From NCBI GenBank assembly GCA_964035545.1, contig OZ037769.1, positions 9,888,633 through 9,952,632 on the forward strand: a stretch of 64,000 nt of DNA, in the 5' to 3' direction. This DNA is from Bugula neritina. Taxonomy: Eukaryota; Animalia; Bryozoa. Below are positions 1 through 54,595 of the stretch, piece by piece. Position 1 is the stretch's first letter. The number at the start of each line of letters is the position of its first letter. The notes beneath the pieces were generated by a model. The model was not told the origin of the DNA. It did not search any database and worked only from the letters and a program-made list of their open reading frames with translations. Made by a program: the position numbers and the translations under genes.

Positions 1-1047
1 ACTCTGACTCTTGTAGCGAGCGTGCTCTGTGTCGAGCCTGTCGGGCACGTAGCCGCCTCTTCAGTCGCCCCACTGAGTCCTTCAGCTGGTATAGACCTGT
101 CGTCGTATCCAGCAGGTCAGGGGCCAGTTGCGTAAACTCGGCTTGTAGTTTTATAAGCCGCTCTTCTACATTAGCCAGTCGGCTAGGCCTTGGTGGGGTT
201 GTAGTAGTCTCTGTTATTGGGGGTATTGTTGTTCCTTCTAATTCGAGGGTGTTGCTAGGGTTGACGGGGGTAGGAGACGGGCCCTGAACCATAGGGGACT
301 TATGGTGGGCGGATAACAGCAGTACTTGGAACCCTGACGCTAGTGCGGCCAGGGTGATGGCCTTCTTGATGACTGGCTTGATGGTGTCCATGTACTGGGG
401 GAAACTGTCCTCATCAACAATATGGTTCTCTCCGGCGAAGCAGCTCAACTTATGGACTATCACAGGATACGGGTATACATCGTGGAACCCGCATGGGCAG
501 AAATGAAGTAGAAAATGGGCGTCTACATGCAGACGCAGGGAGCGGTGTGACGGGCACTCCTCGAAGCAGACCTGGCAGGTCCGGTGGGGTCCACTGGGTT
601 CCCAGGCTTCCTCAATTCTCCTTTCCGTCGTGGGTGACACCCAGCGGTGTCGTCGACGAAGCACCACGGGTAAGCCATTCTCCATTACAGGTTCTTCTTC
701 CATAGGTAGAGAGGTTGGCTGGTCCCGTGACCGGGAGGTGGTCACTCGAGTGTGATCTGAAAGAGTAACAGTGTTAAAGATTATACACTGAGGTACCGTC
801 GGCGTGTACAGCCTGACCGGTACTCTGTTCAGTTACACTCGTGATATTCAGGCTAATGAATAGTTGATGGAGAACACACTCGCTATGGCAGATTATTTAA
901 AATCAAAGTCGACGTGTATTCCCACCACTGTTTATCATTATCGAATCTCCAGCTCGCTAGCTAGTGTAGCTAAAGCTGACTGATGCAGTCTAGTTATCGT
1001 ACCAAAAACATAATTAACTCACCCTTCGATCCAGAATAGTAAGACAT
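1..1047 (-). CDS. Accessory zinc-finger/coiled-coil protein (ORF3) of copy A; predicted exons 1047-1023 and 756-<1
   Basis: Hand translation (missing from the ORF track because it runs off the window): CQVCFEECPSHRSLRLHVDAHFLLHFCPCGFHDVYPYPVIVHKLSC...RLANVEERLIKLQAEFTQLAPDLL, homologous to ORF3 of B and C. Donor AAGG|GTGAGT at 1022, acceptor ACTCTTTCAG| at 757. Confidence 0.8.
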
Positions 1048-2989: not shown

Positions 2990-3342
2990 TGTAGTAATTC
3001 GTGCAATTACTGTGCGTGAGTTATCTACTTGCGTATACTTAGTTGGCTATTCTACTAGCAATTACTAGGGTAGCTGTCGAGTAATTATATTTATTATCCA
3101 CAATAAAACATAAAGCAAACATTGCATCAAATTATCCTATACATCAGTCAACTACTAACACATGTTTCTACTTCAAGCCTCCGCTTACAACAACGTGATC
3201 AATTGTCAATAGCCCGGGAAGTGTCACGTGAGTCGGAAGCATATCTTCCGGTGCTGCTAATTGGTTGCTACATAAGGGCCTTAGTATTCCCAGAACGGAG
3301 AGAGGGCGATTCCCGTATTTGTACTTTGCATGACTCACTACA
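2990..3342 (-). repeat. 5' LTR of copy A (353 bp)
   Basis: TGTAGT...ACTACA termini, adjacent PBS, and a U5 end nearly identical to that of the C LTR. Confidence 0.85.
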
Positions 3343-6285: not shown

Positions 6286-7493
6286 CGGAACCAAGTGCAT
6301 GCAAAATCCATTACATTATAATTACTTATTGCGTATCATTTTGAATGCTATAATTGTAGCTAAGTTGAGCAAGCTTTCTAATGCCTAATTATTGAGATTG
6401 TTGTTAAAGCTTTCAGTGTAATGTAATTTTCATGAAATACGCATTCCGGAGTTATATTCTTTTTTACCATTTTATCGTTTTTGTAACAATACTGATATTG
6501 GAAATTTGTTGTCCGAAATTCTTGTTCTCTCTTACAAAGAGATATGTTCAGCACGTAAGTTTCATTGAACCCACAAAGTTACTACAATATTAACTGAAAC
6601 TTAGTATTTTTTTCAGTAAAGGTATAAACTAAACTCAACAGAAACTTAAAAACGGTAATTAAACTTTATGCTTTGGCAACATGTACACAATAAATTCCTT
6701 CATGGTGCAAACATCTTTGTTGGTTGTTTTTCAACATTTTCACTAGAGCAAAGTTGAAAGCAATTTGGAAACTGCATAGTGACGCAAATTATTGACACAT
6801 CATCACCTAAGAACTTTAGCAAAGCCTCCATCAATAGTTTGTAATACTTTAAGCAAATCTAAAAAGAAAGAAACAATATTTTTTTTGTAATCTAACCCAT
6901 CAATAAACACATCAACAGTTAGTGCGGCCATGGTTTAAACCTCATTATTTTCATGCTACTTTAAGGCTTTTGCAAGCTAAAAGATGTAAGTCATCAGTAA
7001 GAGAAATTTTAGGTGTATGAAATAAATAGAAGTGTAAAAGCAAACAGGAATAAAGGAAGGATGAGTTAGTTAGTTACGAGTTAGTGGACGTACTTTTACT
7101 TGTGACTCACACTTTTAAACAATAGATGAGCTAAGTTGTAAAATTTTGATAACCACCTTTTACACTATAAATTTATGCGGCATAAAATATTCTTCACATA
7201 TTCAACAGCTACGAAGGTTTGTTGAAGATAAACTTCCTCAACAAGTATACAGAAAAAAGCTGCTTGAATGCCACATTTGGTTAGCATGTTATAGGAGTAT
7301 TTGTGTTTCATGTTTATATACATTGATTTAGTCATTTAACTGATAACTAATGATTTCACTTTGTTTTTCATTTAATAAAAACTAAGTTTAGTTTGTATAA
7401 AAAACAGCAATTATTTGGATTCAAGTGATGATCACTTTTTTCTCACCCTACACTGCGTAGGCAAACAATTGGTTAGTTTTGAAGGTGACTAGT

Positions 7494-7618
7494 CAATATT
7501 CCGAAGGTCCATTGATCCGAAGGTCCATTGATCCGAAGGTGCATTGATCCGAAGGTCCATTATTCCGAAGGTGCATTGATCCGAAGGTCCATTATTCCGA
7601 AGGTGCATTAGTCCGAAA
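7494..7618. repeat. 16-bp subterminal tandem repeats in the left MULE TIR (mirror copy at 19867-19959)
   Basis: CCGAAGGT(C/G)CATT(GAT/ATT) units, about 7 on the left and 5 on the right. Confidence 0.9.
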
Positions 7619-9767
7619 ATTAGTAACACAGGATTATATCACTGAGAATATCATAAATTTCACTCACAATCTTGCTATATTATTGCTAGCTGTGGGTGGC
7701 ATACGTGTTGCCTACTTGTGATTGTTTAGCCTGAGATTACTTTATGAAGCTGTCTCAATTAAGGTTGCATTATCTATCAACTTTCCATAAATAAAGTACA
7801 CAGCAATCGATTTGCTAGCTTGTCAGCTAGCAAGCCTGTAATTAGCAGTCTATATGCGTCATTTCCATTTATAAAAAAAACTATATAAGCTATTGAAAAT
7901 TTCAAAAAGGTACCTCTGAGCAACAGGAAGATCTACAACATGGTTTTTCAATTTTACTTTAGGTGAGGTTTTATTTGGCAGCACTGAATTTTTATATACT
8001 AGTAATGCAGCCTCAGCAAAACAGTTACAGCTAAAAGGTTGCCCTTATCTACATATCTTGTGGAGTTGTTTGGTTTGGTGTATATGGTGTGCAGCTTTGG
8101 TTATTTAATTTTCGAATAGTGTCCAAGATGTTTATAGTTTTTTGTCTATAATGCTTATATTTATAGCAGAAAAACTTCAAATAAAACTCTTAAGGTCAAT
8201 GTAACAATTGGCTGATTATCAATATTTAAACTTCATGCTAATCATATAATATTTGACTACCCAACAAAAATAGTGTGTGGCAATGTATAGACAATTTTAA
8301 GCAAAGAATGTTATTAACTTTTCTCATCATTTCTTATTATTTTCAGATCTGTTGTGAATAAAAATTGATGTATTATATATGCTACAGGGTTTAATCATTT
8401 AGTAGCACAAGCAAGCCGCAAGCATTTCTTACTATCTCCCCTATTTTAAAGTTTGTGTTGAAGTGACAGGAGACAGAAATTTCAACTATTCAAACAAAGA
8501 AAAATAAAACAGCCTGAACATTTTTCTTTATTGTGTAGTATTTGAGAGTAGACTTGTCCAAATATTTGCTGCAGTGCAGAATTTATAAATAGCAAAGTGC
8601 TTTTGAAGTTACAGCCAAAGAAATAGGCTAATTCTAGGATCTTTGTATTAAGCTCAAACTAAAATACCCTTCTTGGCAGCTACTCTTTAGTAAATTAAAA
8701 GCCTGTAACCTTACTTAAACTTCCTCATTAAAAATTATAATGGAGATCAAAAGAAACCCGGCAAAAACCAGCTATTACCCCTTGTATACATAATTATAGG
8801 GATGTGTTCTCTTTTAGACCTTAGTAGAAGTAATTTGCAGTAACGCATAGTTTTCTCTGTAACAAGCAGTATATAAATAAGAAATTTTGTGAAACCCATC
8901 ATTCTACCATTTGAAAGTTACAGTTCAGCTAGGTAATGCTTGCGGAGCAGTTATACTACATTTAAATACTATAATAACTAAATACTACACTGATAGAAAA
9001 AGTGCGTGTTTTGACCCGAAACAGTAATAAAAAGTTGTGCAGAAGGTTGGAGACAGCAGAAGGTATGTATCTTTTTAAGTAGGATATTATTTTAATTTTT
9101 TAAGGCTCATAAAATATATTTACACTGTTTTAATTGTAGTTAATAGACTGTCAATTTTATGAGAACGTAGATAATTTTGTTTATGTAACAACTTACTAAA
9201 ATATGGATGTTTTTTTAAAATAATTTGAATCATTAAACCAAGTAAGTTATACTTATTTGTTGATTGAGAAAACTATCATAATGCCTACCAAAAAAAACAT
9301 GCGATGTCAAGTGGTCCTCCAGTATCAAACATCTTAATTTAATATTTACCTGCAAATTATTATTTTGCTTTGAAAGCAGCTTTATAGATTGTTAATTTTG
9401 TTACTTTGTTTTCAGGGATAGTGTTTGACCTTTACGTTAATATATATTTACGCAGTCATCATGGCCTTTATTCAAATGGGATTAAGAGGAGGGAAAATTT
9501 TGATTAACAATGGATACAGATACCAAAAAACAAAGTGACAAGTCATAAGATATTCTGGAGATGTTGGCGAACAGCCTGTAGAGCTTCTCTTCAAACTGAC
9601 TTGTTTAATCTAGAGGAGGAAAATCCTAACATAACAATATTGCAAGTAAGTCAATGCATTTTGATTGTTGAAACAGGAAACAAAATTGTCTATGTAATAG
9701 ACATATAATTTTGTTTTACCATTTTATGCTTGTGAATTTTAAAATTGCTACACTGGCCTGATGATAA

Positions 9768-10072
9768 TGTGGTGGCTCGTGGAGCTACCAGCAACACAAT
9801 ACGCAAGGTTGCGTATTGACCCGGAACAATGTATTAGCCAATTAGCTAGGCTGTTTTATGGGAGTAGTAGCAGCTTCGCGCTACTAGCTCAGTTGAGGAT
9901 AGTGCTGTAAATTAAATAGACGTGCGTATCATTACTGTTGTACATTAGATTTTATTATGTATTCTTGGATTAAAATATAACGATATCTACTCGACTTAAC
10001 TCGGTGAAGTTTCTCTAGTGATAAATAGACTCTCTTGGTGACACATCAACCCTATATCTGAAAATCATAACA
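9768..10072 (+). repeat. 5' LTR of copy B
   Basis: Direct repeat of 16909-17213. Confidence 0.97.
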
Positions 10073-10073
10073 G

Positions 10074-10091
10074 TGGTGGCAGCGGTGGGAT
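10074..10091 (+). promoter_or_regulatory. Primer-binding site, tRNA-Leu
   Basis: TGGTGGCAGCGGTGGGAT is complementary to the 3' end (ATCCCACCGCTGCCA-CCA) of metazoan tRNA-Leu(AAG/TAG), recalled from knowledge. Confidence 0.88.
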
Positions 10092-10105
10092 AGTGTATAT
10101 CAAAG

Positions 10106-10972
10106 ATGGAGACTGAAAATGCTAGAATGCAACCACCCCCAGTAGAAGGTGAGCGTAGAAATGCTGTTAATCCTGTGAATCGTGAAGGAGAAGAAGCTTA
10201 TAGACATTGCTTGAAGGCTCCCACCTTTACTGGGTCGGAAGATGTCGAACAATTTATACAAGAATTTAGAGAAGTAATGGAAGTTGCTCAATGGCCGCAT
10301 AGAGTGGCCCTTATTCAATTGCGGAGAGCGGTGACGGAGCAAGCCAAGCCGTACGGAGTGGGAACGGACGTAGACGGGATACTGGCTGCGCTGCGGGCCC
10401 GTTTTGGCACCTCCGTAATAGACGCTAGGACCAAGCTAGAGAGATTGTGCCGCAACCCGCGGACCTCGCTGCAAGAACATGCCGCGACGGTGAAGAAGCT
10501 GGCGCAGATTGCATATAGCGATCTGCCAGCACAACACCAAGAGCGTTACACCTATGACGCCTTTGTCCAGTCACTAAACGACCTGGGCCTAGACCATCAC
10601 CTACGAGCTAAAGGGATAACCAGAATAGAGGATGCCCTGAAGGCTGGAGAAGCTTACCTGTTGGCTACCCAAATGCATCGAGCACAAAGGAACCCACCAG
10701 TAGTTGGAGTCAGCGCTGCCAGGGCTACGACAGGCTCCGAAGCCCTCCCGCTGGAAGCCGAAGTGGACCGTATGGTAGAGATGCTGGGACAACTGGTAAC
10801 CATTCTGGCCGGTGCTGGCCCCGGTCAGGCCCTGCGGGTGCCCCCAACCCCTGTGGGGCAGGGCTGGAGTAGCGCTGATCAGGACCAGGGACAGAAAGGA
10901 CGACCCCAATACCAGGGGGCGTTAAACTGTCACGGCCCGCGGAACCTCTCCCTCCCCGCGGGCCGCAACTAA
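10106..10972 (+). CDS. gag: Gag of copy B (288 aa, no CCHC knuckle seen)
   Basis: First ORF after the PBS; capsid-like PTFTGSEDVEQFIQEF segment conserved in copies A and D. Confidence 0.88.
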   Translation: METENARMQPPPVEGERRNAVNPVNREGEEAYRHCLKAPTFTGSEDVEQFIQEFREVMEVAQWPHRVALIQLRRAVTEQAKPYGVGTDVDGILAALRARFGTSVIDARTKLERLCRNPRTSLQEHAATVKKLAQIAYSDLPAQHQERYTYDAFVQSLNDLGLDHHLRAKGITRIEDALKAGEAYLLATQMHRAQRNPPVVGVSAARATTGSEALPLEAEVDRMVEMLGQLVTILAGAGPGQALRVPPTPVGQGWSSADQDQGQKGRPQYQGALNCHGPRNLSLPAGRN

Positions 10973-13900
10973 AGGAGTATGGTGGAACGCGCCGTCGTCT
11001 GTCCGTACGGACACGGCGGAACATTCCACCCGAGTGGCAGGTACCACGCAGGACTAGTAGGCCCGCACAACAGCCCAGTACCTTCTCCCTGCCACTCGCT
11101 AACCGGTTTCACCGGTTACCTCGGGAAGAGGAGCCCGCCACTGAAATGGAGCCAGAAGGCCCAGTGGAGAGCCCCAAACCCCGCCGGCACCAACCTCGCC
11201 GCCGGAAGCCCCGTAAATCACGGGTGAAACCCCCGCCGTCCTGTCAATCCAGGACAGCACATGCGGGGGGGGTGAAGGTACAACCACATGGAGAGAGCTA
11301 TTTCCTACCCGGAAAGGTGGCTGGCAACGCCGTCACTTTCCTGCTCGACTCCGGTTGTACTACCAACCTTCTCAGTCGTAGAGTCTTTGAGGCACTGCCC
11401 CGCCGGGACAGGGATAGAGTACGACCGTATACTGGAGAACATGGCACCTTGGCAGACGGGTCATGTATCCCCTTTTATGGTATTATCGAGCTCCCTGGGC
11501 GTGTCCGAGATCAGGCTGTACAGGAGACCTTTATCATAGGTCAACTGGAGGAAGATGCTATCCTCGGAATGCCCTTCTTGAAGCAACACCAGTGCCGAAT
11601 AGATTTCAGTAAGTCGGTGGTGCTGATGGGCGGGCGAGAACTCGCCTGTGTGGATAAGTTTGGGCATCCTCTGGTGGGCGGTGTTCAGGTAGTTCGAAAC
11701 TGCACCGTACCCGGACGCTCCAGAGCTACTATCCACTGCCGAGTGAACAGCAACCGGATAGCCAGGCTCGGGGTCGTTGAAAGCGCGCACGAAAGGATCC
11801 AACTCGCCAGTAGTTTAAACCGACTGACTGAGCGAGGGGAGGTCTTAGTGCAGTGCGTCAACCCCTTTACCGAGCCCATTGAGCTCCCAGCTGGGTCAAT
11901 GCTGGGCCGGTTCCATTCCGTCCAGGAAGAGGACGTGGGCCCGTCGCTGGGTGACGCGACGGAGGCACCCCCTCGACACCCTATTCAGGGACGAGGGGCA
12001 ATCCCAACACATCTCCGGGAGTTATACGAAACAGCCAGTGGCGGCTGCGCGAGTAACAGAGAACGCCAAGCTATGGCTAAGTTACTACGCGACTACGGTG
12101 ATGTGTTCAGCAGCGGAGAGCATGACGTGGGACTGACTGGAATTGTCAGACACGAAATACCGCTGACTGCAAGGACAGTCCCTGTCCGGCAGCCCACGCG
12201 CAGGCTGGGGCCGGAGAAAGAGAAGGAGGTTAGCCGACAAGTACGGGATCTTCTGGACCGGGGACTGATAGAGCCCGCCCATAGTGCGTGGAGCTCGCCA
12301 GTCGTACTGGTCCGGAAGAAAGAGGGCAGTTGGCGGTTCTGTGTGGACTACCGCAAACTCAATAGCGTAACCATACAGGACGCCTACCCTCTACCTCGTA
12401 TTGACGAGTCATTGGACGCCCTAGCCGGCAGCAAGTACTTCAGTACGTTAGACTTGCTAAGCGGCTATTGGCAGGTTCCTCTGAGTCCCGACGCCCAAGA
12501 GAAAGCGGCGTTTATCACACGGGACGGTTTGTGGAAGTGGAAGGTGTTGCCCTTCGGGTTAACCTCCGCCCCAGCCACCTTCCAGAGGCTGATGGAACAA
12601 GTCCTTAGCGGACTCCATTGGAAGACACTGCTGGTCTACCTCGATGATGTCATCGTAATCTCTCCAGACTTCGAGACACATGTCAGTCGTCTGCAGGAGG
12701 TTTTCGAGAGACTCCGAGGTGTCGGTCTTAAGCTCAAACCTTCCAAGTGCGCTCTATTGCAGCCGGAGGTCAAGTACCTGGGGCACGTTGTCGGTCGAAA
12801 CGGCGTGGCAACGGATCCCGAAAAGGTACGGGCAGTAGAAGACTGGGTCACCCCCCAAGACTTGACCGGACTCCGGGCTTTCTTGGGGCTGGTAGGGTAT
12901 TACAGGCAATACATACCAGACTTTGCGGGCATAGCCCAGCCGTTAAACCGGCTCACCGCAAAGGGAGTGACGTGGCAGTGGACTGCAGTCGAACAAGAAG
13001 CGTTCGACCGCCTCAAGGGCTGCCTACTGACGGCGCCCATCTTGGCCTACCCAGACCCCACTCTGGAGTACATCCTAGACACGGACGCCAGTGACCAGAA
13101 TGTTGGCGCTGTGCTGTCACAAGTGCAGGAAGGCCGAGAGGTAGTAGTAGCCTACTACAGCAAGTCTCTCTCTCCCGCTGAACGAAATTACTGCACTACC
13201 CGCAAGGAGCTGCTGGCAGTAATCAAGTCAGTGAAGCACTTCAGACCATACCTATATGGCAGGAAGTTCCGGCTGCGTACGGATCATGCCTCGCTGATCT
13301 GGTTGTGCAAGAGAGCAGAGCCCTCTAGTCAGGTCGCACGGTGGCTCGAAATCCTAGCTGAATTCTCATACCGGATCGAACATCGACCGGGCAAGAGACA
13401 CAGCAATGCGGATGGGTTGAGTCGCCGACCTGACGGAGGTTGCAAACAGTGTCTCAACATCGAGAGGAGGGATGGAGGTCCCCCACGATGCGAGTTGGAG
13501 ACGCTGGCTCATCACGGAGCACCGTTTGACTGGGATCAAGGTCAACTCAGGCAAAGAGTTGATGAGTCCCCGGAGGATGTACAAAACCTCCGCGCCAACC
13601 CTGTACTGGCCGGTAACGTTCGAGAGCTGAAGAAGCTCCAAGAAGAGCTGCCTGGAGTTGTGGCAGACATATACCGGGCCAAAAGGGAAGGGCGACGACC
13701 CAGCGAGGAACGCATACGACAGGGATGCGCCGAGTTCCGGCTATACTGTCAGCGTTGGGACTCGCTGCGGATCGGGCAGGATGGGTTGCTAACCATCTCT
13801 CTAGCTGCCAGCGGCAGACACCCGGAAAGGAAGAGGGTAGTCTGCCCAACAGCCATCCGCCGTGAGTTGATTTGGGATACTCACAAGCAGGCCCACGCAG

Positions 13901-14961
13901 GGGTCAAGCGAGTGATATCCAAATTACGACTCCGGTGGTATTGGCCGCAGATGGAGCGTGACGTCTGGCTCAGAGTCAAACAGTGTGAGATCTGCCAGGC
14001 CAGTAAGCATAGCCGCCCCCCTGGTGAAGCAGGACGGCGGAGGCTATATGCTGGTAGGCCCTGGCAAGTAGTCGCTGTAGACCTGGTCGGACCCATGCCC
14101 CTGACCCCCAGAGGCAATAATTGGATCCTAGTACTAACCGACCACTTTACTAGGTGGGCGGATGCTCTGGCTATCCCAGATGCATCAGCCCCAACAGTGG
14201 CCAGGGCACTAGACCAACATGTATTCTGTTATTTTGGGCTTCCCGAACAGATACACTCTGATCAAGGCGCTCAATTCCAGTCTCAACTGATGAGCGACCT
14301 TTGCCACCTCTGGGGAGTAAATCAGAGCAGGACCACCCCCTACCACCCTCAAGGTAACGGGGTGGTGGAGCGCAACAACCGGATGCTAGGTGATGCACTC
14401 CGGAGTCTCCTCCTTGGACGAGGTCAAGAGGAATCGGATACGGTGTTGCCGCAAGTCATGCGTGCATACCGTAGCACCCCACACACCAGTACTGGTGAGA
14501 CCCCAAACCTCTTGATGCTCGGGAGAGAGACTCGTGTCCCTGACCATCTCACCTATCACGTTCCAGAGCAAGACAACTCGGTTCACGAGTATGCCAGTGA
14601 ACTAGTGGAACGGATGAAGGCCGCACACGAGATACTGCGTCAACAGCAGTGGAAGGTGCGGCACGAAGATTCCGATGAACCACCCCTCTATCAAACGGGA
14701 GATAAGGTGTGGATGGTCAATTACCGTAGGCGTCGCGGACAGGCTGATAAACTGAAGCCTAAGTTCGTAGGCCCCTACGTAGTCGTCGAGGCTATGCCCA
14801 ATCATACGTACAAGATTGAGCGCTCAGGACAGGTGTCTATCCAGAATGAGTCTCGCTTGAAACCGTATTGGGCTAGCCCTGACGGAGTGGGAGAAGCCCC
14901 CCCCGTTGTTAGAGCCCAGGAGGCAGACAACGACGCGCGGGCGACGGCGGCATGGACCTGA
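10873..14961 (+). CDS. pol: Pol of copy B (protease, RT, RNase H, integrase); first ATG at 11146
   Basis: LLDSG, LPFGL..APATFQR, YLDD, TDAS/KELLA/TDH/ADGLS, HHCC, D-D-E (VDLVG, SDQG, VERNN) and GPY motifs. Confidence 0.97.
10921..10977 (+). promoter_or_regulatory. Predicted -1 ribosomal frameshift signal (gag-pol)
   Basis: G_TTA_AAC (10921-10927) in the gag frame, 5-nt spacer, perfect 10-bp stem CGGCCCGCGG/CCGCGGGCCG (10933-10965). The pol (-1) frame is open from 10873. Confidence 0.8.
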
Positions 14962-15547
14962 ATACGAAGTGGTCATACCGCGGGAAGAAAACTTGGTGAG
15001 AGAGGAGCGGCAGCTTTTGTCAACAGAAGCGTGTCCGCCACCGCCAAGTCTAATTCCATCACTTCCAGAAACCGAGCCGGTTCCGGAAGTGCAAACCCCC
15101 ACGGAGGGAGGGGCTCCATCCGGAGAACAAGAAGAGCTGACCGCTAACGGTGAAGTAGAGACGCCATTAGAGGCCCCTACTAACGAACTGGCAAGCGTGT
15201 CACCCCCCCTAGAAAGGGGACAGCGTACGAGGAATCCCCCACCGTATTTGAAAGACTTCGTATGTGACTGCATTAGAAGCGGCGCACATGAAAGTCTAGG
15301 GGAAAACCGTACGATAGAATGTTGGAGTTGTGAACCCCACGCAAATATCAACTTTTGCGAGGGCGGAATAGTGGGAGGAATTAATGCGCGTAAAGCAAAT
15401 AGTTCCGACCTCGTGCCTCAGAAACGATGCTCAGCCTTTTCTTATGCTGACATCGCCAAAGGCAGGCGTATCTCACAACCAGCTCCAACCTTACCAAGAA
15501 CGTTGAGTATGGACATTAATACCGAGTTCCCAGGTAAGCCAGTATAA
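14906..15547 (+). CDS. Pol C-terminal tail of copy B, shifted out of the pol frame at a C8 run
   Basis: Contains RTRNPPPYLKDFV and FSYADIAK, shared with A and C; removing one C at 14897-14904 restores continuity with integrase. Confidence 0.65.
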   Translation: MLEPRRQTTTRGRRRHGPEYEVVIPREENLVREERQLLSTEACPPPPSLIPSLPETEPVPEVQTPTEGGAPSGEQEELTANGEVETPLEAPTNELASVSPPLERGQRTRNPPPYLKDFVCDCIRSGAHESLGENRTIECWSCEPHANINFCEGGIVGGINARKANSSDLVPQKRCSAFSYADIAKGRRISQPAPTLPRTLSMDINTEFPGKPV

Positions 15548-16638
15548 GTCTTGTATTCCTATTCATGGAAACGGGCTCGATGCCAGTAAATTCTGAACTA
15601 ATTCAGCAGATTGAATCAGAATTACTGGGAACCACGTTTCATGTGAATGACGATGAAGACACTGTAATGGCCGACGGTCTGTTAGACCTGGAGCTAGACA
15701 CTGTTCTTGGTCAGTCCACACATGATTCATCAGTTCCTCGAGTGCATTCCAAAAGCTGTGACTCTCAGACTAGCAACGGTCGACAGTCACTAGAATTATG
15801 TTGTAAAGATCCACCGCAATCTAACAATAATTCTACTTTTGTAGACACACTCGCGCCCGTCTCTCCGGGCATGCCTTCTCTAGAGATGGCGTGGGACCCA
15901 GAGCCGGCCCCAACAACTTCTACAACCAGGCAACTGCCACCCCAGTTGGAAGCAACCTCCAACTGGATTACCCCTGCCACAGAGAGAGAAATCAGGACCC
16001 ATCAAGGAGGTGAGAGTAATCGTGAATGCAACCTCTGCCAGCAGCGATTCACAACCCACCGCAGACTAAAAGTACACTTGCCGCAGCACTACATCACCAC
16101 TTTCTGCCCTTGCGGAGAATATAGCTACAATCGTGATTACCTATTGCGGCACCAACGTACTATGCAGTGTTATCAAGGGCATGTCTATGAAGTAGACGAA
16201 TCATCCTATCCTGCCTTTCTCAACGCCATCAAACCACTCATCACTGACTCAGCTCGGCTATCTCGCCTGGAGCAAGGCTTCCCTTCCCCGCGACCCATCA
16301 TCTCTGGAGCCGCAGATAAACCTACCCAGTCTACTAACTCTCCACCTCACAGTCCTCTACGCATGCCGCATACCTTTCCTCGTGTCGTACTACAGAGGGT
16401 AGACACAAATGCGTATACACTCCCTCCTCCCCTTCCATCCTCAGAGCGGAAAAGACACAGACAGCCGACTTCCTCTCGCTCATCCCCCTGGGCCCGCAAC
16501 CTACGTGAAGTAGAAGCTAGGGCGCACGACTTGGAGCAAGAAGTGTACAGACTGGCCCCACGGGTGCAGGCTGCATCCAGTGAACTCAAATATTTACAGG
16601 AGTCTATTAAACGCATGAAGCGTGCGGCCCGCAGTTAA
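15509..16638 (+). CDS. Accessory zinc-finger/coiled-coil protein (ORF3) of copy B; spliced 15509-15533 + 15845-16638 (272 aa) or unspliced 15565-16638 (357 aa)
   Basis: C-x2-C-x12-H-x3-H, then C-x-C-x12-H-x5-C, a Pro/Arg/Ser linker and a C-terminal heptad region. Donor CCAG|GTAAGC; acceptor CTAAC...TTCTACTTTTGTAG|. Confidence 0.88.
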
Positions 16639-16897
16639 CTCGAGTCTACCTACAACTCCATACTACTCATTCCCCTACCTCTCTGTGGCATTCCCTACCG
16701 TAATGGTGGCACGTACTATACATGTAGATAGGACCTTCTCTTACTTATTACTTAGTGCACGTTATACATACCTGTATATTTTTATCAGTTGTTGTTTTTT
16801 TTTGTATATACTTTTATACTGTTCTCTTACCCCCCCACAACGAAGTATACGTTTTTTTTATGTGAATTTTATTTTATCAGAAAGTGGGCTTTCTGCT

Positions 16898-16908
16898 GGA
16901 GGGGGCAG
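16898..16908 (+). promoter_or_regulatory. Polypurine tract of copy B
   Basis: GGAGGGGGCAG directly before the 3' LTR. Confidence 0.85.
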
Positions 16909-17213
16909 TGTGGTGGCTCGTGGAGCTACCAGCAACACAATACGCAAGGTTGCGTATTGACCCGGAACAATGTATTAGCCAATTAGCTAGGCTGTTTTAT
17001 GGGAGTAGTAGCAGCTTCGCGCTACTAGCTCAGTTGAGGATAGTGCTGTAAATTAAATAGACGTGCGTATCATTACTGTTGTACATTAGATTTTATTATG
17101 TATTCTTGGATTAAAATATAACGATATCTACTCGACTTAACTCGGTGAAGTTTCTCTAGTGATAAATAGACTCTCTTGGTGACACATCAACCCTATATCT
17201 GAAAATCATAACA
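16909..17213 (+). repeat. 3' LTR of copy B
   Basis: Direct repeat of 9768-10072. Confidence 0.97.
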
Positions 17214-20200
17214 ATAATTCCACCATCTGCATCGGAGGAGATGTAAATAAAATTGTTTAATTAAGGTAGCAGTGATAATGATAATAATAAGCTATTCATA
17301 TTTATCACTCTAAAACTGTATTTTTTAAATGTTGCCCCACTTTGACAAAATGCTTTGTTTCTGCTGTTACTCTTTCACACTCATTATAATTATTTTCAGT
17401 CACTCTGGGATCGTTCTAAATCTTCTCATACGTTTTTGAGGTGATCAAATATTGTTGGCATCATCTTGCCATTAATTTAATTATTGTTACTTCTAAATCA
17501 TACTACTTTAAGGTTGCAGAGCATAAAAGCCATGGTCAAGAAAATGACCTTATCAAATCATCAGGTTTAGCAGAGCAAATGCTAAAAGAGATAGAAAAAG
17601 ATCCAAGTAAGCCGACTAAAAGAATCTTTGATGAAACTGTTGGAAGGAACATACATGTAAATGTTGATCAAGTTCCAGAGTACCACAAAGTGAAGTCAAG
17701 ATTAGTGAGAAAGAGAGCGTCGCTGAACCCTGCCATACCTCACGAAATATCTGATGTGGAAATTGTAGGACAATGGAAAAAAACATGGACAGGAAGTAGA
17801 TTTCTCTCTCACCAAGATAATGAGTGGGGGATCCTTGTATTTGAGACCAAAAAAAATTTTAAGATGTTACAACAATGTAACATTGTATATGTTGATGGGA
17901 CATTTAAAACCTCCCCAATACCTTACAAACAGTTTGTTACAATCCATGGGTTATTTCATGGAAGACCTCTACCATTTGTAATGGCCCTCATGGGAGGAAA
18001 GACAGTGGGACAGTATAGGCAGCTGTTTCAGCATGTTAAAAGCAGAGTGAGAGAAGTAACAGGTCACCATTGGCGACCAAGAAGAATCATATCTGACTTC
18101 GAAATTTCTCTCATCACAGCTATTGAAACAGAGATGCCCCAAGTCCGAACATCCGGGTGCTATTTTCATTTTTGTCAAAGTATGTGGCGCAGAATACAGC
18201 ATGTTGGCCTCAGTAGGGGTTACAGGTGCTGTAGGCGTCTTCAAAAATGTCTAAGAAAATTTATGGCTATTGGATACTTGCCTCCAGCGTTGGTCCGACA
18301 AAACTTCAGATTACTAGCCACTTCTAACTCAATGCAGCAATTAGTAGCCCAGCACCCTGCTCTGCTAGAGTTTATTAGATACATGGAACAAAATTATTTA
18401 AATGGGCAGTTTCCTCTAGCTTTTTGGAATGTATTTAACAGGAATGGTGACTCAAGAACCAACAATAATGTTGAAGGTTAGTCTGCTATAGCTCAAATAA
18501 ATAATTGTTTTATAGTGGTTGAATTCTCAAGTAATATTTTGTGTCTATGTTAGATAACACCTGATGAATCTAAAATTGAAGTTATTAAAAAATAGGTGTT
18601 TGGTATTTAAAAATTGGAATTGGAATTGTTCAACAATTAACAGCTTTTGCTAACAATTTATTCCTATTGGTTAACTTTTAATTGTGTTGCTTTACTGTTC
18701 AAAAGAATTAAAGTTACTTGGCGTTCATCATCCTGAATAAAGTGCAAATTGGAGTAAGCGTTCCTGCATACACCTACGTTGGCAATAACAGCTTTATTTA
18801 CTAATCCCTATTCATAGTAGAGTATTAATAGAATTAATTTAAATTAATGGTATGGTAATAACTTTAGAAATGAAATTAAATGTATCAAAAAAACCCAAAA
18901 AAGCTTTGAATAAAATGTGTTCAACTAATCTGAGAATAAAGTAGCTTAAACAAATCTTGCATGCATTGGTTACATACCTAGACTAGTCAAAATAATCCTA
19001 AATATATACTAAGCAGCACTGATTAAAAATGTATTTATTTCAGGGTTTCACTGCAGATGGAATGATACTGTTGGAGTTCGACATCCATCCTTGTGGTATT
19101 TCCTGCGGAAACTCAAAGATGAACAACGACTGCTTAATGTTTCATCTCTTGCTGCAAGAAGAGGAGAGGCACCACTACCAAAAAGGAGAAAATGGAGAGA
19201 ACTGGAAAGGAGAATTGAAAGACTGAAGGCAGAGTACAATAATGGGGATAGAGATCTGCTGAATTACTGGAATGCTGTAACTCATGCAATAAAAACATAT
19301 GTTTAAATGACTAAAATTACATTCCAGATAGTATTAAATTTTTACTGATGTTTTAATTTGTGAAAATAGTTTATTTTATATAATGCATCATTGTTCACAT
19401 GAAACTAGATTTTGGTGTACACGCACAGTTAGATGTATATCATATGCTATAATTATTATAGATACAAATCCACTGAAAATATATTTAATAAAATTGTGCA
19501 TATATTTATTTCAATTAACCATGTTGTAGATCTCGGTGTTGCTCAGAGGAACTTTTTTGAAATTTTCATAGCTTTTTACAGATTTTCTATAAATAAGTGA
19601 TTTATCCACTAAAAATTCAATACTGATGCATATAGACTACTAATTACAGGCTTGCTAGCTGACAAGCTAGCAAATCGATTGCTGTGTACTTTATTTATGG
19701 AAAGTTGATAGATAATGCAACCTTAATTGAGACAGCTTCATAAAGTAATCTCAGGCTAAACAATCACAAGTAGGCAACATGTATGCCACCCACAGCTAGC
19801 AATAATATAGCAAGATTGTGAGTGAAATTTATGATATTCTCAGTGATATAATCCTGTGTTACTAATTTTCGGACTAATGCACCTTCGGAATAATGGACCT
19901 TCGGATCAATGCACCTTCGGAATAATGGACCTTCGGATCAATGCACCTTCGGAATATTGCTCCGTCCCCGTTTTGAACACCACATCAGTTGCGTGACAGC
20001 ATAACAGCATAACCAGTGGAGAAAAGAATCATACATACCGATAGATCAGTGGGAACTTGTGAGTGTGTCAGAGTAGTGTCTTGTTGCGTGTCTCTGAAAA
20101 TAAAGTATGAATTTGAATACACTACAAATTTGCAAACGTTTATTTCTGTAGTAATTTGTGCAATTACTGTGCGTGAGTTCCTAGCTTGTAATTATAGTTT

Positions 20201-20802
20201 ATGTATCCACATCAATAAAGGAGCTCTCAATAAGATTAGACGAGGTTTATTTACTACTAAATACAATAAAGAGATATAAAAGCACACGGATTAAAAACAC
20301 TACATCTTTACTATTCTAGTACGCTCTCTCTACTACTCTATACATCGCTGGGGGTTATCACATGACGCGCTCTTATTGGCTAAGGGGACTTGGGGGACGC
20401 GCGTATTACGTACTCACTACACCGCCCCCCCCCAGCAGAAAGCCCTACTTTCTGATAACACAGATACAGTTAGTACTAATACAAAAATATTACAAAAAAA
20501 AACTATAAGACTGAGAGAGCGTATGGTACATAAAAGAAAGAAACACAACTATATACAGTAAAAAAAATATAGAAAAATATAACAATATAAACACACACTA
20601 TGACACTGACGGGAGAGGCACTTATAGGTAAGCGGCCCATAGGGCTACGAAATGTATACTTGTAGGTTACTATATGATTGTCACACTGGGAGATTGTTCG
20701 TCAGCACCGGGCACGAGAGAGGTTTTAGATGGGGCACCACCTGCGGTACCATCAAGAGTGGAGGGTAGGTCGAGTAGGGGAAGAAGGTTTGGGGACGCCG
20801 TC

Positions 20803-21947
20803 TCAAGCGCTTCCTTTCATTTGGGCTACCGAGGCAGAGAGAGCCCGGAGTTCAGATGCGGCGGCAGAGATTCTCGGTGCCAACCTTTGCACTTCTTTCT
20901 CTAGATCCCGTATCCGTTCTTCTGCTTCTCTTAGGTTCCGGGCGGGGGCAGAGTGTCGGTTGGGAGACGAAGATGGCCAACGTCGTTTACGGGAGGGCCT
21001 GGGAGAGACGGGAGGAGAGAGACGCCATCGCTGTGGCACTTCGATGCGTCGTAGCACGACTCTGGGTATGGAGTCGGGGCGGGGCACTGTGCGTGCGGGG
21101 GGTGATGAACGGGGCATGGGTGGTCTCTTATATCCGGGTGGTTTAGGGCAGTGTCCTTGCGTGATGGCCTTGGGTGCGGGGAACTCCTGACGCAGCCGTT
21201 CGTAGCGAGTCGGGTCTGATATGAAGGGTCGGATGAGATCAAGGAAGTGTGGAAAGGAGTGTTCGTCAACTTCATAGAGATGTCCAATGTGACATCCCAT
21301 GGTTCGCTGGTGACGGAGGATGTAGTCCCTGTGGTAACTATATTCACCACAGGGACAAAAGGTGGTGACATAATGTTGGGGGACGTGGACCCGGAGTCGG
21401 CGAGGGGTGGTGAAATGGAGTTGGCACAAGCGGCAGGTGGTGCATTGGTCATCGCCTTTAGATTCTTGAATAAGTGCTTCCGTGTCTTGGGTAACCCAGC
21501 ATGACTGGCTTAAAAGTGGTTCTGGCAGTGTGACGGGGGCAGGTTCCTCATCCCAAGCCATCTCTAATGGTTGTGTGTCACGGGGAAGAGGAGAGGGAGT
21601 GATATCTAAAAGAGCAGAATTATTGTTAGATCGAGTGTGATCTTTACACCATAATTCTGATGACAACCGACTGTTCCTAGTCTGAGAGTCATACATCTTT
21701 TTAGATGGCACTCGAGGGACTGTGTCGTGGGGTGTAGACTGACCGAGCGACATAACGTCAAGCTCCAGATCTAGTAGATCATCGGCCATTGTTATGTTCT
21801 CGTCCCCTTTCACGTAAGACTCAGTCCCCAGTAGTTGTGATTCAATCAGGGCGATTAAATCAGAACTAACTGATGGTAGACCTGATTCCATGAGTGGGAA
21901 TGTTAGGTCAAAGCAAGCTTACCTGAGAACCCGGTATTTGTAATCAT
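20803..21947 (-). CDS. Accessory zinc-finger/coiled-coil protein (ORF3) of copy C; spliced 21947-21923 + 21605-20803 (275 aa) or unspliced 21891-20803 (362 aa)
   Basis: CRLCQLHFTTPRRLRVHVPQHYVTTFCPCGEYSYHRDYILRHQRTMGC and RNLREAEERIRDLEKEVQRLAP. Donor TCAG|GTAAGC; acceptor CTAAC...TTCTGCTCTTTTAG|. Confidence 0.88.
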
Positions 21948-30900: not shown

Positions 30901-33900
30901 GCTGTCGGGATTCCATGGGCCGGAGATGTTTCTTGGTGGATATTGTTTTAAGTTCCTCCAGGTCCCTCTAAAAGAGGAGTTGTCGGTTTAGTCGCAGACG
31001 GCCTGACCCATGTAACAGGTAGCACTGGATTACATGGTTACCAGTAGCAGGTTGGCGATCAACCTGACCTGACAGTCACTGTGACTGTGTCAAGCGAGAC
31101 TGTTGGTCTAAACTTTGTCTCACTTTGAGCCGCACATCACGCCCCATCTTTGCCCAGTAACACTGGAGTGACAACTTAGCGAACACCCTATAGACTTCTG
31201 AATGAAGTTGCTTATGGGTGTCCAAAGATAACTCCCGGCAGATAGCAGCAGGGCAGACCACCCTCTCTCTCTCTGGGTGTCTGCCGTTGGCGGCCATTGT
31301 GGTAGTCAGGAGTTTATCCCCGTTGATCCGTAAGGAGTTCCAGCATTGACAGAATAGCCGGAACTCAGCGCATACCTACTTCAGCCGTTCTTCACTGGGC
31401 CGCCTCCCGTCGTTCTTGGCCCAGATACATCTGCTACCACTCTAGGAAAAGTTTTTCTCAGCTCAGAGACATTACCGGCTAAAATGGGGTCAGTGCGGAA
31501 AGTCTGTACAGCCTCCGCATTTTTGCCAGTCGCCGACATCAGCTGGCCGTGCTCTAAGCTCTACTCCACTCTGTTGCCAGGCGGTGTCTCCAACTTGAAC
31601 TGTAAGGGCCTACATCCTCCTTCTCGATGCCGAGACGCTGTCTGCATCCTCCATTAGGTTGCCGGCTCAGCCCGTCTGCATTGCCATGTTTCTTGCAGGG
31701 TTGATGTTCGATCTGGTAAGAAAACTCAGCTAAGATTTGAAGCCACGGTGCGACCTGGCTGGAAGGTTCGGCTTTTTTGCACAACCAAATCAATGAGGCA
31801 TGGTTCGTACACAGCTGAAACCTTCTGCAATAGAAATAAGGTCTAAAGTGTTTCACTGCTTCGATTACTGCTAAGAGCTCCTTCCTGGTGGTGCAGTAAT
31901 TCCTTTCAGTGGCGGAAAGAGACTTACTGTAGTAGGCTACTACCCTTTCTCAGCCCTCCTGCACTTGCGACAACACAGCACCGCCATTGTGGTCGCTGGT
32001 GTCCATATCCAAGATGTACTCCCAAGCCGAGTCGGGGTAGGCCAATACGGGCGTTTCAAGCAAGCAACCCTTGAAACGGTCAAACACCTGTTAATCGACC
32101 GGAGACTACTGCCAGAGAACCCCCTTTGCGGTGAGCAGATTTAACGGCTGCGTTATCCCCGCAAAGGTCTGGTATGTACTGCCAGTAGTACCCTACCAGA
32201 CCTAGGAATGCCTGGAGTCCGGTCAAAACCTTGGGGATGACCCAGTCTTCAGTTGCCCGTAATTTCTCGGGATTCGTCGCCACGCCATTTCAATGGACGA
32301 CGAACCCAGGTACTTAACCTACGCCTGTAACAGAGCGCACTAGAAGAGTTTCAGCTACAGACTGGCGCCTCTGAGTCGTTCGAAAACCTCCTTCAGACGG
32401 CTGAAATAAGTCGCAAAGTCTGGAAAAATCACGATGATGTCATCGAGGTAGATGAGCAGTGTCTTCCATTGCAGTCCGCTCATGACCCGCTCCATGGGTC
32501 TTTGAAAAGTGGCCGGGGCGGAGGTCAACTCAAACGACAGCACCTTCCATTTTCAGAGCCCGTCGCGCGTTATAAACGCAGCCTTATCCTGAGCATCAGT
32601 ACTAAGGGGGGGGCTGCTAGTACCTGCTTAGCAAGTCTAATGCACCGAAGTAGTTGCTACCGGCCAGGGCGTCTAGATTCATCAATGCCGGGAAGAGGGT
32701 ATACGTCCTGTATGATTACGCTATTGAGCTTGCAGTCATCCACAAAGAACCACCAACTCCGGTATTTCTTCCGGACCAAACAGACCGGCAAGCTCCATGC
32801 ACTGTGTGCTGGCTCTATGAGGCCACAGTCTGGCAGATCCCAAATTTGCCGACTTACCTCTTTTTCCAGCCCCAACCTACCTGTAGGTTGGCGGATTGTG
32901 ACCGTTCTCGCAGCCAGGGGAATCTCGTGGACAGCTTGCGTCAGGCCCACGTCATGGTCTCTGCTACTGAACATGTCCTTGTACTCCCGCAGCAATTTTG
33001 CCATGGCCAGGCGTTCCTCGTTGCTTGCGCAGCCCTGACAGGGCGCTTTGTACAAGTCCTTGACATGTGCTGGGACCAGCGCCGACCTTTCTGCTGAAGT
33101 CGACAGGGGTCATTCGTTGCCTCGCCCAACGACGGCCCCACATCTCCTTCCTTGACAGAGTGAAACCGGCCCACCATGGACCCAGCTGGCATATCCACCG
33201 ACTCCGTGAAGGGGTTGACGCGCTGCACTAAGATCTCTCCTCGCGCAGTCAACTGATTTAAGCTGCTGGCAAGTTGGATTTTATCAGGCGCGCCTTCCAC
33301 CACCCCTAGTTCTGGGATCCGCCTAATATTCACCCTGCAGTAGATAGTGGCTCGGAAGGGCCAGGTATCGTACAGCTCCATACTACCTGCCCACTTACCA
33401 CCAAGAGACGGCCGAACTTGTCAACACAGGTAAGTTCACACCCAGCCATAACCATCCCAGATTAGCTAAAGTCAATATGGCATTCGTGTCTTTTCAAGAA
33501 CGGCTTCCCGAGGATAGCATTGCCCTTGAGTTGACTGAAAATGAACGTCTCCCGGATGGCCTGATCCCGTACATGTCCCGTCAACTCAACTATACCATAA
33601 AAGGGAATATACGACCCATCGTGTTCCCGTCGTATGGTTCCAATCTAGCCTTATCTCTAGCGCTGATGGTGTCAACGAGCTGGCGACTTAGGAGGTTCGT
33701 AGTGCACCCCAAATCTGGCACGAAAGTGACAGCTTTACCGGCTACTTTACCTGGTAGGGAGTAGCTGTTTTCGAGGGGGGCGCACCTGCACTTCCCTAGT
33801 GCGCTCTCTCTCTCTGCAGGAGACGCCTCTTTCGCTTTGGGTTTCAGCCGAAGTAGCCTGCAACGGTTGTGGACATGCCTTCGAATGATAAGAAGTGTTC

Positions 33901-34194
33901 CACCTAGCTCCTGTTCCTCCTCAGACTCTGGTTCTGGCAACTCGAAGGTAGTAGGCCAGCTGTACAGCTTGCCTGTCCATTGTGGCACCTGCTACTTCCG
34001 CAAAGTTGTTTGTCTCGCCAGTACGTGCTGCTGACGGTTCCTCCACGCAGGGGGTCGTATTTCCGACCCGCAGCTGGCGGAAGTTCCTACGTTCCGCAAT
34101 AGTTTAACCCTCTCTGCATAGAGGAACCCTCCCTATGGGAGGGTTCGTGGCTACCACAATCCCAGCAAGTGCTAGCCCGATCCCTTGGCAACCT

Positions 34195-35421
34195 TTTAGA
34201 CTTATTTGTAAACGTCTATATCTCAATCATTTTTCTAGACTGAGTCTTAAAATTTGATGTGGCGAATATTTGAAATTTTATCAACATTTACAAAAATTAA
34301 ATCATATTCAATGGCTTAGCATATATGCACACAAGGTATTCTGTACTGTGTTGCTACTAGTGTAAATTGATAGGTATTATCAAATCGCACAGCAAATTTT
34401 AAGGCTCAGTCTAGAAAAATAATTGAGATATGGATGTTTATAGATTGGTCTAAAAGTAGAAATCCTAAATTTTCCTCAAAATTTTCCTCAACTTTTGTCC
34501 AAAAAAGTAGTCATTTTTTAAAAAGTGTTTGTCAGGCCAAAAATATTTAAGGATAGTACTCAGGACATGTGTAGGTCTATTTGGTGCAATATAAACAAAA
34601 TCTGAGGGTTTCATCCCACATAGACGCTTCCCAGATAGACGCTATTTTTATTTTGTACCATAATAATGTATATAACTGGTTTATTGATTGCTAAATGGCT
34701 AATTTGCTTATAATAGCTATTATAGCTGATATAAAGTGTCTGGAATAATTATAGCCCACTTTTCACAGACCTGTGTGGGGCAAAAAACAGTAATACATTA
34801 TTAATAGACATTATTTTTGATAGGTACTTATTAACGAAATATTTTTTTTCGAATAACAAAAAGTATAAAATATGCAAAATCACTAAGTGAATGCAGATCA
34901 AAGACATTTATTTATGTGCTAAATAGAAAACAATTGATCCAAGTTTATTTAAATATACCTTTATTTTAATAATATTCAAATAAATTGCACATAAAATATG
35001 TATTGCACCAAAATAAATAAAGAGCGTTCAACTGGGAGGCGTCTAAGTGAGAAGCATCCAAGTGGGTAAGTTAGCCTAGCGTCTAACTGGGAAGCGTCTA
35101 TCTGGGATGACACCAATCTGAGACGCAAAGTCGTGTGCCATTTGGTGAGTTGGCATGGAGTGACCCTATACTATGTTGACTCAATCTGAACTTGTTATTT
35201 ACCAGTAGGCATTGTATAGGAAAAGGATGAATTTTTTAAGATTTAAAAATTTGAAGTAATTGACATGTAATTATAAAGTAATTGTAAAAATCAATTACAT
35301 TAGATATGTAATTAATTACAATTTCATTTTTATACATCAATTACAAATTACATTCAATTACTTCAAAAAATGTAATCAATTACAGCCAATTACAATTACA
35401 AATTACAATAACCCCAACCCT
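34195..35421. mobile_element. Composite of DNA-transposon fragments interrupting gag of copy D
   Basis: AT-rich block inside GC-rich gag; ends in (CAATTA)-rich repeats and CCCCAACCCTG; contains the MITE at 34607-35114. Confidence 0.6.
34607..35114. mobile_element. MITE with 16-bp subterminal repeats (Mutator-like)
   Basis: TIRs GGT(T/G)TCATCCCA.ATAGACGCTTCCCAG.TAGACGCTA; 8-bp TSD AATCTGAG (34599-34606, 35115-35122). Confidence 0.85.
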
Positions 35422-36128
35422 GCCCCGCGGCTTCGATGTAATTGATTGGCCAGCAAGTAGGCCTCACCCTCACACAGTGCGCCCTCGACTGTCGCGACTC
35501 CCCTTGCCAGAAATTGGTGATGGAGCCCTTAGTCGTTGATGGACTGCACTAACGCGTCAAAGGTGTACTGCTCGCGGTTAACCGGTAACAAGTTGCTATA
35601 CGTGATCTGTGCCAACTTCTTAACCGTGGCGGCATGCTCTTGGAAGGAGGTGTTGTAAACAGACCTGTTCCACTATGGAGGAGATGCCAATCCTCGTCCT
35701 CAAAGCTGCGAATATACCTCCGACATCAGGTTCCAGCTCATATGGTTCAGAAGTTTTTGCCAGCGACATTCGCAACTTTAGCAGAGCTACGCGGGGTGGC
35801 CACTGAGTGACTTCTGTCACCTCACTGGACTCCTGAATAAACTGTTCAGACTCAGACTCCTAAATATACTGTTCTACGTCTTTGTTGCTGATAAAGACGA
35901 AGGCTTTCAGGTCATACCTGTCACCAGGTAATTCCATGTGAGCCTCCTCACCTCCTAGCATGGGATTTGCGAGAACAACATTATTATCTGGCTCACTGTT
36001 TTCTTCTGGTGCAGACTGCGCCGGTTCCTCTGCCCCAGCGGGAGCTCTTCCCTCAAAGTCCGCCATTTTTACTTCCTCATTATAGTCCAGATGTAGTTAA
36101 GACAACATAATAAAATTCTACCGCTGCC

Positions 36129-36768
36129 CCCCCCCCCCCAAAGCCTGCCTAAGTGTTCCAAATTCAAGTACTTGGGCACAACAATCCAACAAGAGGGAGG
36201 CTGTCGGAGGGAGGTTGAGCTGAGAATATCCAAAGCTTGGAATAAGTGGAGAGAGCTGTCTGGTGTGCTCTGTGACAAGAAAATGCCCACAAAACTCAAA
36301 GTGCTGATTTACAAAATAGCTATTGGACCAACCCTACTATACGGAAATGAGACTTGGCCCATCACAAAATCTCTGGCAGACAAGATGTCATCATGTGAGA
36401 TGCGCATGCTGCGATACAGTTTGAATGTCAGTTTAGAGGATCATAAGCCAAATGAGAAAATAACAGCAGAAGCGAGAGTGATGCCAATTAAAGACCTGAT
36501 GAGGAAAAGACGAATGCAGTGGTATGGACATGTTAGAAGAAGAGAAAGCGAGGAAGACATCCGGAGAGTGTCAGAGATGACAGTTGAGGGAGTTCGACCT
36601 AGGGGTAGACCAAAGCAAAGATGGTGTGATACAATAAACTCAGACCTTAGATGGCTTGATCTAGATGGCGCAGATGCTGAAGATCGGGTTCGATGGAGAT
36701 GCCTGGTAGAACTTGGTATCAAGCAAAAACCCGCCACCCGTGCAGGACCACGACGGTGAAAGGTGACC
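36129..36768 (+). mobile_element. 5'-truncated RTE-clade LINE, a different family from 26896-30900
   Basis: Uninterrupted C-terminal ORF FKYLG...LCDKKMP..LK..IY...LLYGNETW...WYGHVRRR...RPRGRPKQRW; 20-bp TSD AATAAAATTCTACCGCTGCC (36109-36128, 36769-36788). Confidence 0.93.
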
Positions 36769-54416: not shown

Positions 54417-54479
<63 letters not shown>

Positions 54480-54532
54480 CACATATATATACACATGCAC
54501 ATATATATACACATATACATACACCTATATAT

Positions 54533-54595
<63 letters not shown>

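Follow-up and report, generated by a model that had tools for sequence, protein, structure and literature searches.

The window, a 64,000-nucleotide stretch of Bugula neritina DNA, contains an LTR element, here called copy B, at 9768-17213 on the plus strand. The two LTRs are 305 bp each and 100% identical, and a 4 bp target duplication, ATAA, is present on both flanks. The following features were assigned to the element.

9768..10072, plus strand: 5' LTR of copy B, TG...CA, with the target duplication ATAA before it
10074..10091, plus strand: primer-binding site, the sequence immediately 3' of the LTR; copy A has a similar site
10106..10972, plus strand: gag ORF, 288 aa
10879..15547, plus strand: pol, PR-RT-RH-IN-SH3 followed by a low-complexity tail
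16909..17213, plus strand: 3' LTR of copy B, with a purine tract before it and ATAA after it

The primer-binding site is presumably of the tRNA-Leu type. No CCHC knuckle was found in copy B gag in any of the three frames or in the gag-carrying protein P0408. A single frame change interrupts pol towards its end, in the overlap of ORFs 10879-14961 and 14861-15547. Its Pfam matches were RVT_1, RT_RNaseH, rve, Integrase_H2C2 and SH3_Tf2-1, and the Pfam positions (144-236, 478-637, 701-829 and 990-1157) give the order PR-RT-RH-IN. The LTRs, target duplication, primer-binding site, purine tract and domain order place copy B among the Ty3/Gypsy LTR retrotransposons. In the pol tail (15240-15480), past the PPYLKDF motif, Cys/His and FSYADxxKGRR-like residues are kept in copies A, B and C. 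The LTR of copy B contains a perfect 10-bp palindrome (9797-9818), a candidate binding site that may be due to chance.

Copies A and C are decayed relatives of copy B on the minus strand. A homologous third ORF after pol, reported for all three copies in an earlier note on this DNA, was confirmed.

1..1047, minus strand: gene in copy A, with ATG 1047, a donor following 1023 and acceptor 757; the ORF is not closed before the window edge
20803..21947, minus strand: gene in copy C, with ATG 21947, a donor following 21923 and the ORF at 21918-20803

The ORF3 of copy C (21918-20803, minus strand) is 53-54% identical to its homolog in B. That of copy A (832-2, minus strand) is 27-28% identical to its homologs and runs past the window edge. 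A six-frame profile search of the window found three finger domains. A fourth decayed copy at about 31100-36000 (minus strand) comprises gag and pol pieces of the same clade, and no finger domain was detected in it by this search. The 3' LTR of C (20150-20421) shares both ends with the 5' LTR of A (2990-3342; coordinates approximate), yet the ORF3 of C is closer to B (53%), suggesting recombination between subfamilies. Directly after copy B is a MULE transposase ORF of 353 aa (17420-18481, plus strand). A stretch at 36097-36759 (plus strand) looks like the C-terminal part of an ORF from a non-LTR retrotransposon, and 48094-48450 (plus strand), with an adaptor-protein beta subunit-like motif, is presumably a host exon. 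Tandem arrays were seen at 60613-61300 (15-nt units), 48400-48965 (21-nt), 54380-54670 (short) and 7478-7633 (16-nt).

The third ORF of copy B (ORF3) spans 15538-16638 on the plus strand, with an ATG at 15565. The earlier note had started it at 15509; the ATG there lies in a different frame, which is closed after 12 codons, and forms part of a 25-nt candidate exon described below. ORF3 was divided as follows.

15565..15844, plus strand: residues 1-93, extending the N-terminus in the long form, with an acidic stretch and the candidate phase-1 acceptor 15586
15931..16302, plus strand: core domain with Trp-helix, finger 1, finger 2, VD strand and helices
16027-16089, plus strand: finger 1, C155/C158/H171/H175
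16105-16170, plus strand: finger 2, C181/C183/H196/C202
16447..16461, plus strand: basic cluster RKRHR, candidate nuclear localisation signal
16486..16638, plus strand: C-terminal long helix and stop, heptad pattern, predicted coiled coil

The motifs listed in the earlier note were all present: finger 1 as C-x2-C-x12-H-x3-H, finger 2 as C-P-C-x12-H-x3/5-C, VDExS(F/Y)P, the Pro-rich linker and the LxxVEER...LAP heptad. Classical C2H2 spacing is found in finger 1 only and there is no TGEKP-linked array. Residues 8-50 form the acidic stretch, with 11 D/E and no K/R. Of 24 family members scored, 18 have a basic cluster at most 30 aa ahead of the helix. The view that ORF3 is not env also held. Signal peptide and membrane anchor were judged by 19-residue hydropathy, and no membrane segment was found. 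The highest values were 0.58 in B, 0.94 in C and 1.58 in A, and the peak in A is absent from B and C. No F- or gB-type fusogen was among the structural matches listed and the model is that of a small zinc-finger domain.

ORF3 is under purifying selection, with a B versus C pN of 0.327 and pS of 0.684; the earlier note had asked whether the ratio lay near 1. The bootstrap interval of pN/pS was 0.41-0.56 over 350 codons. Constraint was seen in the finger region (pN 0.19, pS 0.84), extended to residues 8-64 in the B/C family (pN 0.235, pS 0.559) and was near-neutral in the linker (ratio 0.62-1.1). Integrase was more tightly constrained than ORF3 (pN 0.096, pS 0.551). The B versus C ratios are conservative because synonymous sites are close to saturation.

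AlphaFold predicted a confident core at residues 121-246 and a helix at 308-356 (pLDDT 87-96), with disorder between them. Modelled alone with AF2 (~120 aa, 72 sequences) the core reached pLDDT 96 and pTM 0.87. A two-copy dimer prediction for residues 296-357 scored 0.11 against a mark of 0.32, which speaks neither for nor against a dimer. Heptad scores for the C-termini of Pol-fused relatives gave no uniform picture, with 14 of 26 at no more than 13 of 200 shuffles. The finger pair was the sole part resembling known structures, and weakly so. In VIA, none of 48161 chains had Z of at least 5; the top match was Kaiso (Z 3.5, rmsd 2.8 over 57 residues), and the best neighbours were mostly DNA-bound tandem C2H2 proteins, again weakly matched. 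Foldseek returned nothing at E<=0.001 from PDB and viral structures. With Kaiso, ZBTB and CTCF the domain shares two consecutive beta-beta-alpha-like fingers, and it differs from them in the C-x-C second finger, the 5-residue linker without TGEKP, the extra Trp-helix and VD strand, and a Pfam score under the cut-off. The PF00096 score was 15.7-19.2 bits against a cut-off of 25.2, with seven of 72 members at E<=0.01. No Pfam family reached its gathering cut-off for the domain and nothing in NCBIfam matched it, so the earlier failure to recognise a named family stands for these two databases. No Pfam match to a chromodomain, GDSL esterase or DEDDy exonuclease was found. In the ESM Atlas the top matches were unnamed clusters, followed by C2H2 sets. 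The predicted architecture is of the kind seen in nuclear nucleic-acid-binding regulators.

Copy B contains three AG/GTRAG sites in 6837 internal bases, two of them at places conserved in other copies. These and the acceptor region are given below.

10106..10148, plus strand: gag leader exon, 14 codons and 1 base, donor AG/GTGAG
15509..15533, plus strand: internal ATG and 25-nt candidate exon, donor AG/GTAAG, in the pol-tail frame in B
15820..15844, plus strand: acceptor region with a TCTAAC resembling a branch point, a pyrimidine tract and a phase-1 TAG acceptor

The gag donor (B 10148) recurs at the same position and phase in copy A (2912, exon 2954-2912). The spacing of ATG, 25 nt and donor is kept in all three copies (B 15533, C 21947-21923, A 1047-1023), and both donors are phase 1. 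In copy A, which is decayed, the internal ATG follows the pol stop and is in another frame. Acceptors homologous to B 15844 are present at C 21606 and A 757. Just upstream of 15844, over residues 65-92, synonymous divergence is down to 0.22. One database protein, P0080, matches A gag over residues 1-14 (12/14) and A ORF3 from residue 15, at the acceptor codon. This gag-leader-to-ORF3 join, exact on both sides, was found in 1 of 504 proteins compared; P0080 derives from a 5320-base JGI contig, and a reinserted spliced copy explains the join as well as a transcript does. The one spliced product on record is thus a short form, in which the acidic extension is absent. The constraint on residues 8-64 in the B/C family makes it likely that a long acidic form also exists, begun at ATG 15565 or joined at acceptor 15586. 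A YAG at residues 7/8 for the latter is compatible with 32/32 homologs; 15586 stays a candidate, since the residue-pair test is a lenient one in which 14 of the first 130 positions reach 80%. Acceptor 15768 was rejected as out of phase. Acceptor 15733 was also rejected, being compatible in only 42/48 homologs and without a tract.

No GT..AG joint was present among the joints listed on 9700-17300 or on 15380-15900 in assembled contigs from five runs; the only run recorded as RNA is X2, whose coverage of the junction region is very thin. A contig of X2 maps to 16290-16565, which is not proof of transcription. An inverted repeat was seen at 15792-15834 (plus strand) and in C at about 21657-21615 (minus strand), with TCTAAC in its 3' arm. 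Its folding z-scores were weak (-1.67 and -0.93). Lying at the branch point, it could gate acceptor choice. ORF3 is likely made from a spliced sub-genomic RNA.

Protein searches gave 65 matches with B and 100 with A, all of them unnamed metagenome or run-assembly records. A profile search of 1.84 billion representatives gave 321 cluster representatives at E<=0.001, of which 147 were at 1e-10. The Trp, eight ligands and VD strand were 90-98% conserved in 101 more distant domain rows; for the last ligand the count rests on 72 rows, and the most distant members often have His there. No match was obtained by phage tblastn and no related loci were found in the metagenome contigs or viral contigs searched. 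The carriers of the module are a Ty3/Gypsy group from marine samples.

In 24 of the best 120 Pol relatives (of 7865 matches) the domain follows integrase in the same frame, at E 2e-7 to 6e-27, and P0305 is also fused. The earlier description of an extra ORF is thus right for the A/B/C sub-lineage, where ORF3 is separate and no fusion to integrase occurs in the window's copies; it does not extend to the many relatives with the module in the pol frame. The domain was absent from the protein records of all 13 relatives for which NCBI gives an organism name (frogs, fish, a pseudoscorpion, a moth), and a separate ORF in non-fused Pol relatives is invisible in such records. Domain identity tracks RH-IN identity over 25 fused proteins and B (Spearman 0.61, 0/5000 permutations). 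As kin share both parts, this indicates long joint descent and not co-adaptation. The domain diverges fast, with a median identity of 21% compared to 54% for RH-IN. Upstream of it an acidic hydrophobic helix was found in 11 of 25 Pol-fused relatives, where shuffles gave an expectation of 0.6; the motif was defined post hoc, after the sequences had been read, and B, C and A miss its strict form. In many fused forms a Met and an acidic helix are found 200-600 aa past integrase, resembling the start of a separate gene. Judged by sequence, ORF3 is of long standing as an accessory module in a single Ty3/Gypsy clade. Recent capture from the host, which the earlier note had considered, is largely ruled out by the 321 representatives, the fusion in 24 of the best 120 Pol relatives and the co-divergence with Pol.

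Thirty homologs were looked up, and every cluster for which an organism was named came from bryozoans. The proteins were XP_067940963/4 (two domains) and XP_067944745 of Watersipora subatra and KAF6040922 and KAF6040923 of Bugula neritina, the Bugula pair being neighbouring genes (EB796_000763/764). XP_067944745, KAF6040922 and KAF6040923 have a common extra N-terminal domain of ~60 aa before the finger domain (P0245, P0302, P0482), and genes with this domain are possibly a conserved bryozoan gene family. In trees of 96 rows, made by a quick search with an assumed root, the bryozoan genes were scattered at several places among element domains. A single clade of these genes was rejected (p-AU 0.018) in a test on 40 of the 96 rows, with a simpler model and the group named after the first tree was seen. 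The simpler reading is that the module was probably domesticated repeatedly in bryozoans, and it is possible that the gene models are mis-annotated element pieces. The splice structure, the Pol fusion, the CERV precedent discussed below and the bryozoan genes are all missing from the earlier note.

The reading we tentatively favour, at a probability of about 0.45, is that ORF3 is a nuclear transcription regulator which would bind its own LTR and boost expression of the element. The gag leader of 14 codons, or the internal 25-nt exon, would be spliced in phase 1 to acceptor 15586, giving the long form with the acidic stretch, or to 15844, giving the short form without it. The basic cluster would import the protein into the nucleus and the C-terminal helix would pair two copies; LTR DNA would be recognised by the fingers, and co-activators would be brought in by the acidic helix. 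Activation would be the work of the long form, with which the short form may compete. Disordered linkers set the folded two-finger core apart from the long helix, as in the layout of a transcription factor, and the module order (Met, acidic helix, linker, fingers, basic linker, long helix) favours LTR activation. Separate ORFs with their own splice signals in A, B and C point to action apart from Pol. Further support comes from the DNA-bound tandem C2H2 neighbours, the acidic helix in 11 of 25 relatives, the exact join in P0080 and the purifying selection, and foamy virus Tas, discussed below, is a precedent. C2H2 fingers bind RNA and protein too. Several results count against LTR activation: the strict acidic motif is missed by B, C and A, and P0080 is a short form; finger 2 and the linker are non-canonical, with no Foldseek match at E 0.001; and the LTRs of A, B and C share only a 6-bp motif, AATACG, and then a CCAAT box, which could be chance.

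It is a poorer bet still, and improbable at present, that this envelope-less clade is a 'complex' retrotransposon encoding a sequence-specific transcription factor of its own, in which alternative splicing (long activator, short competitor) would act as an on/off switch and the module would move between Pol fusion and spliced gene and be repeatedly tamed by bryozoans into a family of host genes.

An RNA factor like CERV or Rev, which would bind unspliced element RNA, block the gag donor and export the genome, or replace the missing nucleocapsid knuckle, is the alternative that survives best, though we consider it unlikely. A consensus donor inside gag means that the genome must escape splicing, and so strong a donor needs protection. 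The absence of CCHC from B gag and P0408 would fit such a role, as would the hairpin at 15792-15834, which covers the branch point in B and C, its low z-scores speaking against it. The motif MAD(D/G)LLDL(E/A)LD, which we take to resemble a nuclear export signal, occurs in 24 of 37 long-form B-family proteins with an LLDL core, but within the part that the short form skips. The layout is shared with CERV (gag-shared 5' exon, env-position ORF, Cys finger, leucine zipper and basic NLS), and by analogy the role of CERV in RNA export tells against LTR activation. The C4 loop and G-protein-like domain of CERV were not seen in ORF3, whose structural neighbours are mostly DNA binders.

The Pol fusions allow a further reading, more doubtful again, in which ORF3 is a chromodomain-like targeting module that, on the integrase C-terminus (joined there as a direct fusion or by way of a small intron at the internal donor) or in trans via the helix, would tether integration to DNA or a chromatin mark. 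The in-frame position behind integrase, in P0305 as in 24 of the best 120 Pol relatives, fits this reading and counts against LTR activation. The divergence that tracks RH-IN (rho 0.61, 0/5000 permutations) and the internal donor of B, in the pol-tail frame and phase-compatible with both acceptors, are also consistent with it. Against it, the gag-leader splice of P0080 yields a protein without integrase, the Met and acidic helix of many fused forms lie 200-600 aa past integrase, and the internal ATG of the decayed copy A is out of the pol frame.

An anti-silencing or host-modulating factor, binding element DNA or a host repressor and lifting heterochromatin, is very unlikely. The fast divergence of the domain (median 21% versus 54% for RH-IN) fits a conflict with the host and the domain occurs in bryozoan genes too; no enzymatic or known chromatin-reader domain was found in Pfam, and such an activity is hard to tell from activation. 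Least credible, and already largely refuted, is a recently captured host zinc-finger gene, decayed env or neutral passenger, to which the four annotated bryozoan gene models with the domain lend some weight, set against purifying selection, the lack of a membrane segment, a domain that tracks Pol across the clade, and bryozoan genes scattered among element domains with one clade rejected (p-AU 0.018).

Accessory genes with regulatory roles are characteristic of complex retroviruses. The case opens to direct test the ways in which elements without an envelope gene control their transcription, RNA export or choice of target. For annotation it supplies an unnamed zinc-finger domain of ~120 aa and candidate domesticated bryozoan genes; bryozoan repeats are described as poorly annotated in the available text of PMC13326412.

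Foamy virus Tas/Bel1 resembles ORF3 as a spliced 3' accessory gene and is an activator of the LTR, the function proposed here for ORF3. As far as the available text goes, Tas binds both the LTR and the internal promoter (PMC517496, PMC4929722). It has an internal start, and an internal promoter for ORF3 may be suspected from the conserved ATG-donor exon; unlike the ORF3 element, foamy virus is a true retrovirus with env. In chromoviruses a chromodomain is fused at the integrase C-terminus, like the ORF3 module in being behind integrase in one clade. ORF3 differs in fold and also exists as a separate, probably spliced ORF.

Bdelloid rotifer LTR elements also have a non-env third ORF after pol. 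Those ORFs are GDSL esterases, DEDDy exonucleases or TM proteins, and zinc is not mentioned in the text available (PMC5408684). Env-carrying Ty3/gypsy elements, bryozoan ones included, likewise have a third ORF in metazoan Ty3/Gypsy; theirs encode F- or gB-type glycoproteins, with the order gag-env-pol in bryozoans, and the part of PMC13524379 at hand has no mention of 'zinc finger' or 'coiled'. Neither this domain nor a zinc-finger ORF3 of any animal Gypsy element was found described in the literature outside Repbase, Dfam, GyDB and subscription journals, where a curated entry may exist.

The closest precedent is CERV of C. elegans Cer1, which exports unspliced RNA and is dispensable for transcription according to the available text of PMC10309623. 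In that text CERV is a 517 aa protein with H, M and G domains and a C4 loop, forms ring multimers and is reported from nematodes only. Like ORF3 it is a non-env ORF placed after pol and ahead of the 3' LTR with a Cys finger, leucine zipper and basic NLS (PMC10309623), and it is made from a spliced mRNA sharing the gag 5' coding sequence, for which the ORF3 counterpart is P0080 and the donor in A and B. ORF3 is set apart by the domains described, having two C2H2-derived fingers and a C-terminal helix, and by its frequent fusion to Pol. Within the literature found, CERV is the sole such protein characterised in an invertebrate LTR retrotransposon. ORF3 would be a second, unrelated-looking and clade-wide example with defined splice sites. 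Its kind, a non-env accessory gene, is known; its protein module, found across the clade, carries no name in the databases searched and comes with a defined splice design.
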